IMG/VR virus record: IMGVR_UViG_2690316028_000012
Reading direction: 5' to 3' (one strand)
Origin: a virus
Lineage: Duplodnaviria > Heunggongvirae > Uroviricota > Caudoviricetes
Length of the DNA: 11,390 nt
Each line of letters begins with the position of its first letter. The first letter of the stretch is position 1. Below the pieces are notes generated by a model, which was not told where the DNA came from, did not search any database, and worked only from the letters and a program-made list of their open reading frames with translations. This document shows positions 3,086 to 8,949 of the stretch, one piece after another. Made by a program: the position numbers and the translations under genes.

Positions 3086-3919
3086 ATGAACATCGAAAAA
3101 AGCAGATTAATTTCTGAGGCCGCCCCTCATCTGAACGCCTATCAGGGCACAATTAACGGTAATGAATTTGCCGCAATTGTCCCGGTTATTCCTGGTCATA
3201 TCGGTGGGCGTGAAACCAATATTGTTAGCGCAAAAGCGTTACACAAAGCGTTGGGCGTGGGAAAAGACTTCTCTACATGGATCACTGATCGCATCTCTGA
3301 ATATGACTTCACCATTGGGCACGATTACTCAGTCCATAAAACAATTTCCCCAAATCTGGGGAAAAGCCCGAATGGCACGGCTTACAGCAAGATTAAACAG
3401 TCTGGCAGACCCGGCAAAGACTATCTGTTAAGTGTCGGAATGGCGAAAGAACTGGCGATGGTCGAACGCACCGAACAGGGCCGCGCTATCCGCCGTTATT
3501 TCATCCAGTGCGAGGAAGAATTACAGCGTAGCGTGCCTGAAATCGCCGCCCGCTATCGTCGCCAGCTAAAAGCCCGTATCGGTGCCGCCAACCTGTTTAA
3601 ACCGATGTGCGTAGCGCTGGAAAGCGCCCGCGCAGAACAGGGTAAACAGACGCAGGCTCGCCACTACAGCAACGAGAGCAACATGATCGCCCGTATCGTG
3701 CTGGGTGGCATGACGGCGAAGCAGTGGGCGCAGGCAAATGGCATTACTGGCGAACCACGGGACAGCATGAACGCAGCACAGCTTGAACACCTCGCCTATC
3801 TCGAAAGCACCAATATCACGTTAATTGATATGGGCATGGAATATGAGCAGCGCAAAGGAGAACTCACCCGCCTGTCGCAACGCTGGCTCGCTAAACGTCT
3901 GGAGGTAAACCATGCGTAA
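3086..3919 (+). CDS. Phage antirepressor-like protein with N-terminal AntA/AntB-type domain
   Basis: 277-aa ORF. N-terminal segment SAKALHKALGVGKDFSTWITDRISEYDFTIGHDY resembles the AntA/AntB antirepressor domain consensus as recalled; not searched. Confidence 0.65.
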   Translation: MNIEKSRLISEAAPHLNAYQGTINGNEFAAIVPVIPGHIGGRETNIVSAKALHKALGVGKDFSTWITDRISEYDFTIGHDYSVHKTISPNLGKSPNGTAYSKIKQSGRPGKDYLLSVGMAKELAMVERTEQGRAIRRYFIQCEEELQRSVPEIAARYRRQLKARIGAANLFKPMCVALESARAEQGKQTQARHYSNESNMIARIVLGGMTAKQWAQANGITGEPRDSMNAAQLEHLAYLESTNITLIDMGMEYEQRKGELTRLSQRWLAKRLEVNHA

Positions 3920-4094
3920 CCACAATCCGATGCCGGGAAGCCGTTACAAGGACAGTCACGGGGCTGTAGTGACCGTACAGCGCGTCGAGCATAACCGTGT
4001 GACCTTTTACCGCGAGGGCTATCAGTCGCCATGTGTTCAGCCTTTGGAGAGATTCGTTAATGAGTTCGTGGAGGTGCGCCGTGATACTGAATGA
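3912..4094 (+). CDS. Small hypothetical protein (possibly the DUF4222-like small prophage protein family)
   Basis: 60-aa ORF. Start overlaps the upstream stop in ATGCGTAA, with GGAGGT 5 nt upstream. The family assignment is from memory only. Confidence 0.5.
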   Translation: MRNHNPMPGSRYKDSHGAVVTVQRVEHNRVTFYREGYQSPCVQPLERFVNEFVEVRRDTE

Positions 4095-4381
4095 ACCTGC
4101 CGCCCAGAAAGAAGCCTTTAATCTGGCTGGCATGTTGTCAAAAGTTGACATCTGCAACCTTACAAAACCTGATATTGATACCGCAGCGCCCGGAGTTCCG
4201 TTACCAGTACGCGAGGCGCTTACCCTCAACAAAAAGATGGTGAGCCGTGCACAGGAAAAACTCTTAAAGGGTTACGGTTTTATCTGGTATGACCACCTAG
4301 CAGAGAAAAGCTGTTATAGTCCAAGCGTTGCTGCAAAATCAGCAACCGGGATTGGAACCCCGAACACACTAAGGGCGACAC

Positions 4382-4404
4382 AGACGCCGAAAGCGTCTTT
4401 TTTT
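4382..4404 (+). terminator. Candidate intrinsic terminator inside the operon
   Basis: Stem AGACGC (4382-4387) / GCGTCT (4393-4398), loop cgaaa, followed by a run of seven T to 4404. Confidence 0.5.
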
Positions 4405-4593
4405 GTGTCCGATCACCACGCACATCAAATCAGCGGCCTTGCCCGTACTGTATCTATGGTGGCGTTAGTGGGGCTACGTTCGCGTAGGCCGGTTTCCTTT
4501 GTGTCCGGTAGTTCCAACCCTGCTAACGTCACCGCCACTATTAAGATTGGAACCTTATGCGGTGACTCCTTAAACACAAAGGAGGCTGCCATA

Positions 4594-4785
4594 ATGGCTA
4601 CTACCCCAACCCAAAAACCATCATTTATCTGGTTAATCGCAGCAGTTCGCCGCGATATGCCGACAATTACCGCCAAAATTCACCATATCGCCGCAGAGAC
4701 TGAGCAGGAAGCCCGCCGCATTCTGGCGCGGGATCACGTTTGCTTTTTTGCCGGACGTATTCGCACAGGGGGCGCACATGCTTAA
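4594..4785 (+). CDS. Host cell division inhibitor Icd-like protein (63 aa)
   Basis: Strong RBS aaaggagg 8 nt upstream of ATG 4594. Product MATTPTQKPSFIWLIAAVRRD...EQEARRILARDHVCFFAGRI resembles Icd-like proteins as recalled. The tracker's 250-aa ORF 4033..4785 is the same frame running on upstream with no credible start. Confidence 0.6.
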   Translation: MATTPTQKPSFIWLIAAVRRDMPTITAKIHHIAAETEQEARRILARDHVCFFAGRIRTGGAHA

Positions 4786-4957
4786 TTACTTCCGTGTTGC
4801 AGGATGCGCCACCGCCCGGAGCGGCGAATTAGTCGAGTTCGTTTATATCGTTGACGCCCGCAGCGCGATCAGCGCCAAAGCTGAGGCGCTAAATCAGGCC
4901 AGAAATGAACGCCTTTCCCACATCCAGATTACCCGCATTCGTGAGGTGGCAGCATGA
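4778..4957 (+). CDS. Small hypothetical protein (59 aa from ATG 4778; tracker ORF begins at 4748)
   Basis: ATG 4778 overlaps the Icd-like stop (ATGCTTAA). Its own stop overlaps the next start (ATGA at 4954). Confidence 0.4.
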   Translation: MLNYFRVAGCATARSGELVEFVYIVDARSAISAKAEALNQARNERLSHIQITRIREVAA

Positions 4958-5849: not shown

Positions 5850-6191
5850 ATGATTACTAAAAATTTCCGACTGAATGCGCTGGCGAATAAGTATGCGTCG
5901 GCACTGTATAACCACATTACCTCCACCAGCGGCGGGGACTATTTCATGGTTGATGCGGACGGCCTCGCCGTCCGTGTGGAAATCGTCAATGGAGTAAAAG
6001 GCGTTCGCAGCCTGATCGATAGCTACACACTGGCAGCCATGAAAGTGTTCTACCCGCAGTGGGAAACCGTGGGGATCGAGCTTCTTGATCGTTGCGTCAC
6101 TAAGGACGGATTGACTGACGTCGGGCGCGAGATATGGCAAAGCATGATTAATGATATGGGCGCGACCGTGGCAGGAGGCAACCATGCGTAA
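5850..6191 (+). CDS. Hypothetical protein (113 aa)
   Basis: RBS gaggga upstream of ATG 5850. Stop overlaps the primase start in ATGCGTAA. Confidence 0.55.
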   Translation: MITKNFRLNALANKYASALYNHITSTSGGDYFMVDADGLAVRVEIVNGVKGVRSLIDSYTLAAMKVFYPQWETVGIELLDRCVTKDGLTDVGREIWQSMINDMGATVAGGNHA

Positions 6192-8949
6192 TATCGACCT
6201 TATCCGCGAAGTGACCAGCGCCGCAGCAGGGCGCTGGCCTTATGTGCTGGCTGGATTGTCTATCGACGTGCCTGATTCATCGCGCCGCCATTCTCCATGC
6301 CCTGCATGTGGTGGAAAAGACCGTTTCAGATTCGACGACAACGGGCGCGGTAGCTTTATCTGCAACCAGTGTGGCGCTGGTGACGGGCTGGATTTAATCA
6401 AGCGGGTTAACAACTGCGACACTACGGAGGCGGCACAGCTTGCCGCTGACGTGCTGGGTATTGATTACCAGGCAGCGCAAACCGACCCGGTGGCAGCGAG
6501 CCATAGAAGAGAGCAACTGGAAGCTGACCGCCAGCAGCGTGAGCAGGAGCGCCAGAAACAGGCAGCAGAGGACGCAGAGCAGCGAAGGGCTACGTTTGCC
6601 CATCTGTATGCCGGAATGCGCCAGAGTGCCACACAGGGCGAATCTGATTACCTGCAATCAAAAGGGCTGACCGGGTTTAACTATCCGGTTATGCCGGATG
6701 GTTCGTTATTGCTGGAGCTGGTGGACGAATCCGGCGCAGTGGCAGCAGCGCAAACCATTACACCGCAGGGAGAGAAGCGACTCCTGACAGGTTCAGCAAA
6801 GCGCGGGGCATATCACGCCGTAAACGCGCCAGAATCGCCGCAGAGCGTTTTAATTGCCGAGGGGCTGGCAACCGCTTTATCAGTCCACCTGATGCGCCCT
6901 GACGCGCTGACAGTGTGCGCCATTGATGCGGGCAACCTGCTACCCGTTGCCGAAGTGATGCGCCGGATATATCCAGCCACGCAGATTATCATTGCCGCAG
7001 ATAACGACCACCAGCAGGACGAACAGGCGAACACGGGCAAAGATGCCGCAGAGAAAGCCGCCTTATCCGTGGCTGGCTGGGTGGCACTGCCGCCGACAGA
7101 CTACAAAGCCGACTGGGACGACTACCGCCAGCAAAACGGGCTGGAAGTCGCTACGGCTGCGTTTAACGATTCGATGTACCAGATTCAAGGGGAAGCCGTG
7201 AAACCGCGATTGCAAGCCATTGAGGGCGGTAAAACTGACCATCCAGAGAAAGATCCACTAAAACCCCACATTGAGAGCCGCAAAGATGGCGTTTTCTGGG
7301 TAACGCCGAAGGTGGACAAGGAAAGCGGGGAGATCGTCAACGCTGAAAGCTGGTTATGTTCCCCGTTGGAGGTTATCGGCACGGGACGCGACGACAAAGA
7401 TCAGTATCTTATTATCTCATGGCTGGCATTCGGTGCAGGCATACCGACAACAGCGGCTATCCCGCTGGCTGATATTGGCGAGCGTGAAGGCTGGCGCACC
7501 CTGAAAGCTGGTGGCGTCAACGTCACAACGAAAAACAGCCTACGGGCGATTCTTGCCGACTGGTTACAGCGAAGCGGCTCGCGTGAATTGTGGCGCGTTG
7601 CTCATGCTACAGGCTGGCAGTGCGGGGCATACATCATGCCGGACGGGGAAATCATCGGCACACCTGAGCGGCCTGTTTTGTTCAGCGGGCGCAGTTCAGC
7701 CGCTGCCGGGTATACCGTAGCAGGAACGTCGGAAAGCTGGCGTAACAGTGTTGCGCGGCTGGCATACGGTAATTACGCGATGATGACAGGCATCGCCGCA
7801 GCACTGGCAGCGCCATTAATCGGGGTGGCAGATCGTGACGGATTCGGGATTCATTTTTATGAGCAATCGAGCGCCGGGAAAACAACCACGCAGAACGTGG
7901 CGAGCAGTCTATACGGCAACCCTGATGCCTTGCGCCTGACGTGGTACGGGACGGCGCTGGGGCTGATAAACGAGGCCGCCGCCCACAATGACGGGCTGAT
8001 GCCACTGGATGAAGTCGGACAGGGCGCTGACCCGATAAGCGTTTCTCAGTCTGCCTATGCCCTGTTTAACGGCGTGGGGAAATTGCAGGGAGCAAAGGAA
8101 GGAGGCAACCGGGATCTGAAACGCTGGCGCACCGTGGCAATCAGCACCGGGGAAGTGGACTTAGAAACCTTCATCGCCACCGCCGGACGCAAGACCAAAG
8201 CCGGGCAACTGGTGCGCTTGCTGAATATCCCGTTAAGTAAGGCGGTGCGCTTTCATGAACACCAGACAGGGAAAGAACACGCCGACGCGCTGAAAGATGC
8301 TTATCAGCACCATCATGGCGCTGCCGGGAGGGAGTGGATCAGATGGCTTTCAGACCACCAGCAACAGGCGATTGATGTCGTTCGTGAGTGTGAAGCCCGC
8401 TGGCGCAGTCTAATCCCTGCCGACTATGGGGAACAGGTTCACCGTGTAGGGGCAAGATTTGCCATTCTGGAGGCCGCTTTACTGATGGGTGGCGTGGTTA
8501 CTGGCTGGGATGCTCAAACGTGCCGGGATGCGATACAGCACGCCTATAACGCATGGCTAAAAGAGTTCGGCACGGGGAACAAAGAGCACCAGCAGATCAT
8601 CGAGCAGGCGGAGGCATTTTTAAATGCCTATGGCCTGAGTCGATTCGCGCCGCTGCCTTACGACCCCGCCAGCCTGCCGATTCATAATCTGGCTGGATAC
8701 AGGCAGCGCGGAAATCATGACGATTCACCGATAACGTTTTACACGTTCCCCGACACTTTCGATAAGGATATTGCTAAGGGGTTTAACAGGCAGCAGGTGG
8801 CCCGCGTCCTGAAAGAATCGGGGATGCTTACCCCTTCGGCAGACGGAAAAAAATTTCAGAGGAAAAGCCCGCGCATTCAGGGGAGGCAGATTAACGTTTA
8901 CGTTTTGCAATTCCTGCCGGATGGGGAGGAAAGCCAGCCAGAGCAATAA
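6184..8949 (+). CDS. Replication primase-helicase (P4 alpha-like: zinc-ribbon + TOPRIM primase + DUF927/D5-type NTPase)
   Basis: Start placed at ATG 6184 (AGGAGG 5 nt upstream) rather than the tracker's 6151. C4 zinc ribbon CPACGGKDRFRF...FICNQCG. TOPRIM motifs LIAEGLATALS and IIIAADNDHQ. P-loop-like YEQSSAGKTT and Walker-B-like LMPLDEVG in the C-terminal half. Confidence 0.9.
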   Translation: MRNIDLIREVTSAAAGRWPYVLAGLSIDVPDSSRRHSPCPACGGKDRFRFDDNGRGSFICNQCGAGDGLDLIKRVNNCDTTEAAQLAADVLGIDYQAAQTDPVAASHRREQLEADRQQREQERQKQAAEDAEQRRATFAHLYAGMRQSATQGESDYLQSKGLTGFNYPVMPDGSLLLELVDESGAVAAAQTITPQGEKRLLTGSAKRGAYHAVNAPESPQSVLIAEGLATALSVHLMRPDALTVCAIDAGNLLPVAEVMRRIYPATQIIIAADNDHQQDEQANTGKDAAEKAALSVAGWVALPPTDYKADWDDYRQQNGLEVATAAFNDSMYQIQGEAVKPRLQAIEGGKTDHPEKDPLKPHIESRKDGVFWVTPKVDKESGEIVNAESWLCSPLEVIGTGRDDKDQYLIISWLAFGAGIPTTAAIPLADIGEREGWRTLKAGGVNVTTKNSLRAILADWLQRSGSRELWRVAHATGWQCGAYIMPDGEIIGTPERPVLFSGRSSAAAGYTVAGTSESWRNSVARLAYGNYAMMTGIAAALAAPLIGVADRDGFGIHFYEQSSAGKTTTQNVASSLYGNPDALRLTWYGTALGLINEAAAHNDGLMPLDEVGQGADPISVSQSAYALFNGVGKLQGAKEGGNRDLKRWRTVAISTGEVDLETFIATAGRKTKAGQLVRLLNIPLSKAVRFHEHQTGKEHADALKDAYQHHHGAAGREWIRWLSDHQQQAIDVVRECEARWRSLIPADYGEQVHRVGARFAILEAALLMGGVVTGWDAQTCRDAIQHAYNAWLKEFGTGNKEHQQIIEQAEAFLNAYGLSRFAPLPYDPASLPIHNLAGYRQRGNHDDSPITFYTFPDTFDKDIAKGFNRQQVARVLKESGMLTPSADGKKFQRKSPRIQGRQINVYVLQFLPDGEESQPEQ

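Follow-up and report, generated by a model that had tools for sequence, protein, structure and literature searches.

A probable P4-type antisense-RNA immunity module nested in a maintained open reading frame of a satellite prophage

Does the stretch between positions 4095 and 4593 of the viral DNA analyzed here (an 11,390-nucleotide sequence, referred to below as the window) act as an RNA or encode a protein? The first-pass annotation had posed an either/or choice between a P4-CI-like immunity RNA with repeated targets and an Ash-family reading frame. In more than 100 E. coli genomes, the stretch carries the name of an "Icd-like protein" of 234 to 298 amino acids (aa) or of a pseudogene for an "ash family protein," and none of the three RNA elements that we describe is annotated there. 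Our analysis indicates that the region from 4081 to 4785 serves, with high probability, as the immunity region of a satellite prophage (P4-like or PICI-type) and follows the design of phage P4. The module is an antisense-RNA immunity switch nested in an open reading frame (ORF) that is kept translatable and is not conserved as a protein. In a near-identical genome, the element adjoins a tRNA-Thr gene beside proA; it begins with an integrase, followed by an int-alpA RNA and AlpA. An AntA gene (3086 to 3919) lies upstream of the module. The features of the region, all on the plus strand, are as follows.

4070 to 4083, plus strand: Shine-Dalgarno (SD) sequence GGAGG (4070 to 4074) and GTG start codon (4081 to 4083), identified from the sequence, relatives, and NCBI annotation.
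4081 to 4785, plus strand: eta-like long ORF of 234 aa that spans the RNA module and whose in-frame C-terminal part is the Icd/Kil-like protein.
4312 to 4320, plus strand: likely constitutive promoter resembling P4 PLE, TGTTATAGT, with the extended -10 TGT-TATAGT.
4327 to 4404, plus strand: seqA/IsrK-like leader RNA (Rfam isrK and c4-a1b1 matches, fold, terminator scan, and duplex scan).
4327 to 4346, plus strand: leader hairpin 1 of the predicted fold.
4347 to 4362, plus strand: leader hairpin 2 of the predicted fold, with UUGGAAC (4352 to 4358) in its loop.
4366 to 4375, plus strand: second upstream target, ACACUAAGGG, from the duplex scan.
4382 to 4404, plus strand: intrinsic terminator resembling P4 t1, from the terminator scan.
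4452 to 4539, plus strand: antisense RNA of the C4/P4-CI type (Rfam, minimum free energy [MFE], and covariation).
4528 to 4566, plus strand: alternative helix between GUCACCGC (4528 to 4535) and GCGGUGAC (4559 to 4566), from the sequence and compensatory changes.
4545 to 4585, plus strand: seqC-like downstream targets, UUGGAAC (4547 to 4553) for the joint and ACACAAAGGA (4574 to 4583) for the loop of the C4 RNA.
4594 to 4785, plus strand: Icd/Kil-like gene of 63 aa (NCBIfam, identity to P4 Kil, and coding signature).

An Rfam scan of the window returned three plus-strand matches above curated thresholds, in the order in which they occur in phage P4. These were c4-a1b1 at 4314 to 4366 (53.6 bits against a threshold of 46.7), isrK at 4327 to 4403 (74.6 bits against a threshold of 50, ending in the terminator), and a full-length match to the C4 antisense RNA (RF01695) at 4452 to 4539 (82.1 bits against a threshold of 45; E = 2.5e-15). 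In phage P4, scanned likewise, seqA was matched by isrK and c4-a1b1 and the CI RNA by C4, again in this order. C4 and isrK matches were also found in six further E. coli relatives, in the E. coli locus L002 (93% identical to the window), in one P1-like phage, and in one lambdoid phage. Membership of these elements in the three RNA families is thus established. IsrK and C4 have previously been equated with seqA and CI of P4-like prophages (PMC3632133), the two Rfam profiles match Gram-negative PICIs (PMC10111431), and termination by CI, seqA, and seqC has been described (PMC4825925).

The leader RNA had a predicted folding energy of -23.1 kcal/mol (z = -2.96). The terminator-shaped hairpin followed by seven T residues that the first-pass annotation had pointed out at 4382 to 4404 proved to be the sole terminator-like site between 3900 and 4800; it consists of AGACGC-CGAAA-GCGTCT and the T7 run. 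It lies between the promoter-like element and the C4 RNA gene and after the upstream target, which is the arrangement of the P4 immunity region. The promoter-like element TGTTATAGT ends 6 nucleotides (nt) ahead of the first base of the isrK match. A -10-like hexamer was present at an equal distance from the isrK start in the aligned relatives; it reads TATAGT in the window, L002, L127, L128, and P4, matches TATAGT more weakly at the same position in the other aligned relatives, and is also visible in the enterobacterial alignment. A two-hexamer consensus promoter scan did not detect the TGTTATAGT site, which has no good -35 element, and a promoter at 4312 to 4320 likely relies on the extended -10. 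The TTGACA at 4145 to 4150 to which attention had been drawn earlier is present, but we rejected it as a promoter, since no -10 partner was found and the sequence is not conserved, reading TTAACC in the 93%-identical relative.

The isrK match raises the possibility of a switch like that of Gifsy-1 in Salmonella, where IsrK belongs to the same sequence and structure family as the 77-nt leader RNA of the window with its terminator. On this reading, the short RNA from 4327 to 4404 would act in trans, releasing the long transcript from an inactive fold and thereby turning on the downstream genes. The 74.6-bit score speaks for it, and the authors of the IsrK study already pointed to its homology to seqA and to a processed RNA downstream of it (PMC4825925). 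We nevertheless regard such a switch as extremely unlikely here. What follows the leader is C4 and icd/kil rather than orf45-anrP-isrJ, the action proposed for IsrK differs (PMC4825925), and we found no evidence in the window for the alternative folds described for IsrK. Moreover, the short RNA carries targets and not antisense elements, so it would more likely titrate C4.

The C4 RNA had a predicted MFE of -39.3 kcal/mol (z = -4.58) and folds into a 17-bp closing stem around two hairpins (4474 to 4487 and 4488 to 4509). Two recognition elements are exposed in this fold, the loop UUUCCUUUGUGU (4493 to 4504) of the hairpin at 4488 to 4509 and the single-stranded joint AGUUCCAA (4510 to 4517), and a CCA-like 3′ tail (CGCCACU) is present. 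RNA folding and covariation across homologs had been suggested as a check at first pass, and we carried this out with 94 aligned C4 sequences, obtained by scanning one genome per species with a search pattern and adding P4, P1-like, and lambdoid phages. In this alignment, 95.2% of cells were paired, compared to 37 to 45% in slid controls, and 19 of the 27 pairs changed on both sides; one helix is invariant solely because the search pattern fixed it. Covariation thus supports the fold.

The alternative helix competes with the 3′ strand of the C4 closing stem and holds the first seqC target in its loop. Relatives carry compensatory changes in this helix (CCAUCACC/GGUGAUGG and GCUAUCGCC/GGCGAUAGC), and a helix of at least 7 bp was found in 65 of 100 loci, compared to 43.7 with permuted partners. 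From these observations, we infer that the helix has a role.

To locate the targets of the C4 recognition elements, a duplex scan was run over positions 3900 to 4900. The best site for the loop was ACACAAAGGA, with -15.0 kcal/mol at 4570 to 4585, and this target overlaps the SD sequence AAGGAGG (4579 to 4585) of the Icd/Kil-like ATG at 4594. The position of a downstream target over the ribosome binding site (RBS) is thus an observation of this analysis. The best sites for the joint outside C4 were the two copies of UUGGAAC at 4352 to 4358 and 4547 to 4553 (-8.8 kcal/mol at 4344 to 4359 and 4539 to 4554). The upstream loop target ACACUAAGGG is weaker, with one mismatch and -9.0 kcal/mol.

These sites bear on the repeats that had been noticed at first pass. 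The direct repeat GATTGGAACC at 4350 and 4545 is well beyond chance (0.02 copies expected; 0 of 200 shuffles reached 2), and the inverted GTTCCAACCC at 4511 to 4520 was likewise borne out, its core GUUCCAA pairing with UUGGAAC at both GATTGGAACC sites. The other direct repeat, TTTGTGTCCG at 4402 and 4498, is also present (0.04 expected), but it looks coincidental and we rejected it as a functional element: a direct repeat cannot base-pair, and relatives retain T7-[A/G]TGTC past the terminator but vary in the C4 loop.

Complementarity between the antisense elements and their targets was then surveyed in 100 distinct loci, whose joints fall into 18 types and whose loops fall into 59. At 93 of the 100 loci, the joint has a perfect 7-mer complement within 30 nt downstream of C4 of the same locus (12.5 with partners permuted), and at 94 it has one within 200 nt upstream of C4 (14.5 with partners permuted). 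Matches to the own loop occurred downstream at 71 loci and upstream at 44, compared to 5.6 and 3.6 in the permuted sets. The complementarity and its covariation are thus established across these loci. L002 provides the most telling example: where it differs from the window within the module, the changes are concentrated at the three interacting sites and compensate one another. From the window to L002, GAUUGGAAC becomes GCGUGGAAA in both targets and the joint changes from AGUUCCAA to AUUUCCAC, so that the pairing partners are AGUUCCAA/UUGGAAC in the window and AUUUCCAC/GUGGAAA in L002. In other close relatives, the joint is AGUGCAAA or UACGCCAA, and the targets match it. Judged from these sequences, the window, L002, and the AGUGCAAA and UACGCCAA types are predicted to be heteroimmune variants of one module. 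The earlier suggestion of a P4-CI-like immunity RNA with repeated targets is supported by the Rfam scores, the order of matches shared with P4, the fold, and the covariation of the targets.

The short protein encoded from 4594 to 4785 matched the NCBIfam model phage_ICD_like (NF033153) with 73.1 bits, compared to 76.1 bits for P4 Kil. Its 63 aa are 41% identical to P4 Kil and 36% identical to a P1-like Icd, and it is evidently a homolog of both. The gene has its own RBS, is in frame with the GTG at 4081, and, by analogy with P4 and P1, would be the first gene under antisense-RNA control. Replication genes are found downstream, namely, a primase of the Zn-ribbon/Toprim/DUF927 type (6151 to 8949) and an SSB; small ORFs downstream of icd gave no Pfam or NCBIfam match.

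We next consider the long reading frame that runs into this gene. The first-pass annotation had seen no credible gene start in the region, and its statement that the internal Met codons at 4132, 4237, and 4456 lack Shine-Dalgarno sequences is correct. A start is nonetheless available at GTG 4081, which lies 6 nt after GGAGG, so that the ORF shares its first 14 nt with the end of the DUF4222 gene (stop codon at 4092 to 4094). The start context TTCGTGGAGGTGCGCC-GTG is common to 8 E. coli loci, and the NCBI pipeline starts the ORF there in six of them. In the window, the long frame is free of stop codons, while the other two contain 8 and 12 (probability of being open given shuffling, 0.0004). 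The 8 E. coli loci with GGAGG-GTG have 512 to 705 nt between the GTG and the icd start, with 0 stop codons against 8 to 17 per other frame (probability of ≤0.0004 per locus).

Length variation within the module also respects the frame. Distances from the GTG to the leader (isrK) start were 246, 288, 303, 375, and 438 nt, all 0 modulo 3; distances from the isrK start to C4 were 125, 101, and 98 nt, all 2 modulo 3; and the indels in the long frame were all multiples of three. Among 20 loci of species-level relatives from other Enterobacterales, 19 were free of stop codons from -200 to +110 around the C4 core, with spacers differing by 15, 21, and 60 nt. The stop-free frames and the multiple-of-three indels led us to reject the idea that the Ash frame is simply spurious. 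Some relatives (L002, L038, L069, and L098) have icd in a different register from the long frame, which indicates that in-frame nesting with icd is not essential.

The frame is not open at C4 loci in general. No consistent open frame was found at the C4 loci of Pseudomonas and Burkholderiales, and the P1-like phages D6 and 673R5 do not keep the long frame open; the idea that C4 loci generally carry an open frame was therefore discarded. Since it is open in satellites and not in P1-like loci, the ORF appears to be a lineage-specific functional feature. In the lambdoid phage mEp460, the module lies inside a 384-aa Rha ORF. A 50-aa ORF at 4091 to 4243, whose ATG overlaps the DUF4222 stop codon, was also considered as a missing gene and was rejected, as only 15 aa of it are left in all seven relatives.

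Although the frame is maintained, its amino acid sequence is not. Mean pairwise differences at codon positions 1, 2, and 3 were 0.28, 0.28, and 0.23 upstream of the promoter; 0.18, 0.18, and 0.24 in seqA and the spacer; 0.10, 0.11, and 0.09 in C4; and 0.24, 0.21, and 0.19 in seqC. The corresponding values for the homologous icd ORFs of 7 enterobacterial loci were 0.043, 0.073, and 0.276, an approximately 6-fold third-position excess. Ratios of synonymous to nonsynonymous codon changes were 1:9, 6:8, and 3:11 in the N-terminal part of the long ORF, compared to 20:13 in icd and 10:3 in the DUF4222 gene. The N-terminal part of the ORF is, in addition, swapped for unrelated sequence of 246 to 438 nt in close relatives. 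An open frame without amino acid constraint is thus what the alignments show. We conclude from the sequence comparisons that the long frame is maintained while the amino acids upstream of 4594 are unconstrained, a pattern that matches eta/kil of P4.

These results bear directly on the alternative of a functional "Ash family" protein of the Bro network, for which the repeats and conservation would act at the protein level and the RNA matches would be incidental. The Pfam model Phage_ASH (PF10554) does match the frame, with 61.9 and 70.3 bits against a gathering threshold of 26, the higher score falling on residues 79 to 179 of the long ORF; the frame is clearly maintained; "ash family protein" is widely annotated by NCBI; and Phage_ASH has been grouped with the Bro network (PMC10111431). 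However, the match is translated from nt 4315 to 4590, which is exactly the RNA module (the Rfam matches from 4314 to 4539 plus seqC). Codon positions are flat in this region, against the 6-fold third-position excess of icd, and nonsynonymous changes outnumber synonymous ones; purifying selection on amino acids was not detected in the Phage_ASH region. The exchange of the N-terminal part in close relatives, the covariation of the stems as RNA and of the repeats with the antisense elements across the 18 joint types, and the lack of a consistent open frame at nonenterobacterial loci with the same RNA module likewise stand against a protein. P4 immunity reportedly requires no protein (Ghisotti, 1992), which also argues against one. 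We therefore consider a functional Ash protein very unlikely.

The choice posed at first pass was a false one: translating the RNA module yields the Ash match, and at the same time the frame is maintained as an eta-type ORF. Similarly, the proposal that the repeats would be protein-level features if the frame encoded Ash did not hold, as the repeats act at the RNA level. The translated frame of the window and the obsolete "cI gene product" ORF of P4 both match Phage_ASH (NCBI "ash family protein"), but in the window the conservation captured by the model is explained by RNA elements and not by constraint at the amino acid level. The family of P4 epsilon is another one, PF25738, although PF10554 has served as the marker for P4 epsilon in a survey of P4-like satellites (PMC8628076).

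A second alternative is that control is of the P1 type only. In that case C4 would mask the icd RBS and Rho-dependent polarity would follow, the upstream sites and the terminator would serve folding or processing of the precursor, and the long ORF would be nonregulatory. The module indeed shares much with immI of P1 and P7: the C4 fold, two-element recognition, a pair of targets on either side, a second downstream target over the icd RBS, and homology to Icd. The layout a1b1-c4-a2b2-icd is that of P1 immI, with P1-like phage-plasmids showing ~70 to 71% DNA identity over 4346 to 4600. The strongest duplex, at -15 kcal/mol, lies over the SD sequence, and the stretch from 4500 to 4740 is richer in C than in G, which would fit a Rho loading region, although this is weak evidence. 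There are also differences: the antirepressor (AntA) gene is upstream in the window and not downstream of icd, the window element is a chromosomal satellite and not a plasmid prophage, and the long frame is not maintained at P1-like loci. This last point is one for which P1-type control gives no account, since the long frame is kept solely in the satellite and lambdoid lineages, in the satellites with very strong statistics, and is not open at the P1-like loci D6 and 673R5. In addition, the upstream target is complementary at 94 of the 100 loci and stands directly before a conserved terminator, as expected for regulated termination. Control of the P1 type alone thus seems improbable, and we favor the P4 design.

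The likeness to P4 extends over the whole region. The three Rfam matches occur in the same order, the -10 hexamer TATAGT is equally distant from the leader start, an intrinsic terminator follows seqA, a downstream target covers the RBS of a 63- to 65-aa Icd-like/Kil protein, and replication genes lie downstream in both. In both, the long ORF has its start ahead of the promoter and within the end of the gene before it, and kil forms its in-frame continuation; in P4, the frame starts at ATGATGATG over the stop codon of the AlpA-like orf88 and continues in frame into the 65-aa Kil. There are differences as well. The gene whose end the long ORF overlaps is a DUF4222 gene in the window and an AlpA-like gene in P4, and AntA and DUF4222 genes stand between alpA and the module in the window, which has no epsilon homolog. 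The window primase is of the Zn-ribbon/Toprim/DUF927 type, and the promoter-like element of the module relies on an extended -10. Finally, the joint is AGUUCCAA in the window and AUUCUCAC in P4; because their recognition sequences differ, the two should be heteroimmune.

The relevant mechanistic work on P4 and P1 is that of Ghisotti (1992), Sabbattini (1995), Briani (2000), and Citron and Schuster (1990). In P4, Kil is a truncated Eta that is translated solely on read-through, and the transcript is processed into CI (PMC10111431, summarizing Forti et al., 1999). Full-length Eta is translated solely from the upstream late promoter, coupled to the alpA homolog, and Eta translation prevents termination (PMC10111431).

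By homology to these systems, which is the basis for what we propose on promoter use, RNA processing, termination, and the effect of translation, the module would operate as follows. Transcription from the promoter at 4312 to 4320 would produce a leader containing the seqA targets (4352 to 4375), the terminator (4382 to 4404), the C4 RNA, and seqC (4547 to 4583). The C4 RNA would be cut out of this transcript by RNase P and persist as a stable species of ~77 to 80 nt, as in P4 and P1. Pairing of C4 with seqA would strengthen termination at 4404 and so limit synthesis of C4 itself, an autoregulatory loop. Pairing with seqC would block translation of icd/kil, and termination would then occur before the replication genes (primase at 6151 to 8949). 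The element would thereby remain quiescent and confer immunity of defined specificity. When transcription comes from the upstream operon, ribosomes may translate through the module, preventing both termination and RNA pairing and making this transcription insensitive to immunity, by analogy to P4 eta.

The immunity design is one already described for phage P4, and curated families exist for its RNAs; the finding, though correct, is thus an ordinary one and entails no new mechanism. Its value is mainly for annotation, as the names "Icd-like" (for the long protein) and "ash family" hide an RNA immunity module, and PF10554 marks this module and not the P4 epsilon derepressor. It is about an even question whether this holds generally, that is, whether PF10554 and the NCBI names "ash family" and long "Icd-like" denote a translated seqA-CI-seqC module without any sequence-dependent protein function, its frame open solely for ribosomes to run through, a "translated immunity leader" that perhaps occurs in lambdoid phages too. 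If so, surveys that used PF10554 as a marker of P4 epsilon actually scored the RNA immunity module. For the satellite itself, the correct reading identifies the switch that keeps it quiescent, and the joint types (AGUUCCAA in the window versus AUUUCCAC, AGUGCAAA, and UACGCCAA) predict which satellites are mutually immune.

In phage P4, Pfam PF10554 (Phage_ASH) hits the ORF formerly annotated as "cI gene product", an obsolete entry that lies on top of the CI RNA, and epsilon matches PF25738 instead of PF10554. The comparison covered two regions of P4:

8168-8584 and 7888-8175, P4 regions compared for PF10554/PF25738

PF10554 served as the epsilon marker in a survey of P4-like satellites (PMC8628076). 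Since the family matches the ORF over the CI RNA and epsilon belongs to PF25738, the marker used in that survey is in fact a detector of the RNA immunity module.

In the long, eta-like ORF that crosses this module, a hypervariable patch lies in the N-terminal part, at window positions 4129 to 4175. All 12 differences between the window and its 93%-identical E. coli relative (L002) within 4081-4313 fall inside this patch. The corresponding part of the ORF in relatives L127 to L131 (about 960-1360) is rebuilt from modules of 246 to 438 nt; the peptide NL(S/T/I)KPDI recurs in these N-terminal modules. The long frame is broken in 1 of 20 enterobacterial loci, that of Kluyvera (L048), which is one base short on the 5′ side of the stem that closes C4, so that the frame shifts. 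Either an error in sequencing or decay of this copy could account for the break. Indels of 1 or 2 bases directly 5′ of the icd start place the long frame and icd out of register in L002, L038, L069, L098, L102, and L024/L044. At these loci, the long frame stays open across icd in a different frame and in most of them reaches the next gene.

An 8-bp helix can also form between window 4528-4535, on the 3′ side of the stem that closes C4, and a downstream segment (4559-4566); the loop of this helix holds the first seqC target. Compensatory changes in this helix were noted in relatives (L012, L055, L069, L098, and P4), and pairing of at least 7 bp between the two segments was found in 65 of 100 loci, compared to 43.7 with permuted partners. 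The helix may form when the unprocessed transcript folds in a different way, or it may correspond to the atypical P4 terminator t4.

Between positions 4500 and 4740, a span that takes in the 3′ half of C4 and two thirds of icd, C outnumbers G all along (GC skew of -0.15 to -0.22), as would be expected of a Rho loading region. Some enterobacterial loci (L069, L087, and L097) carry a TATAAT close to consensus, together with a plausible -35 element, between the leader terminator and C4, and these motifs suggest a second promoter dedicated to C4; nothing comparable is present in the window. A further RNA was identified in the window between the integrase gene and the following ORF:

1269-1335, + strand, int-alpA RNA (Rfam, 60.6 bits; threshold, 35.8)

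The isrK and C4 module also occurs in the lambdoid phage mEp460 (1037-2188), inside a 384-amino-acid ORF annotated "Rha". The start of this ORF lies 360 nt 5′ of the module and has a Shine-Dalgarno sequence, and the ORF runs in frame into the antirepressor. The mEp460 C4 joint, the single-stranded recognition element, reads AUUUCCAC, and several E. coli satellites have exactly this joint (L002, L127, L131, and L132). This shared joint sequence hints at immunity cross-talk between phage and satellites.
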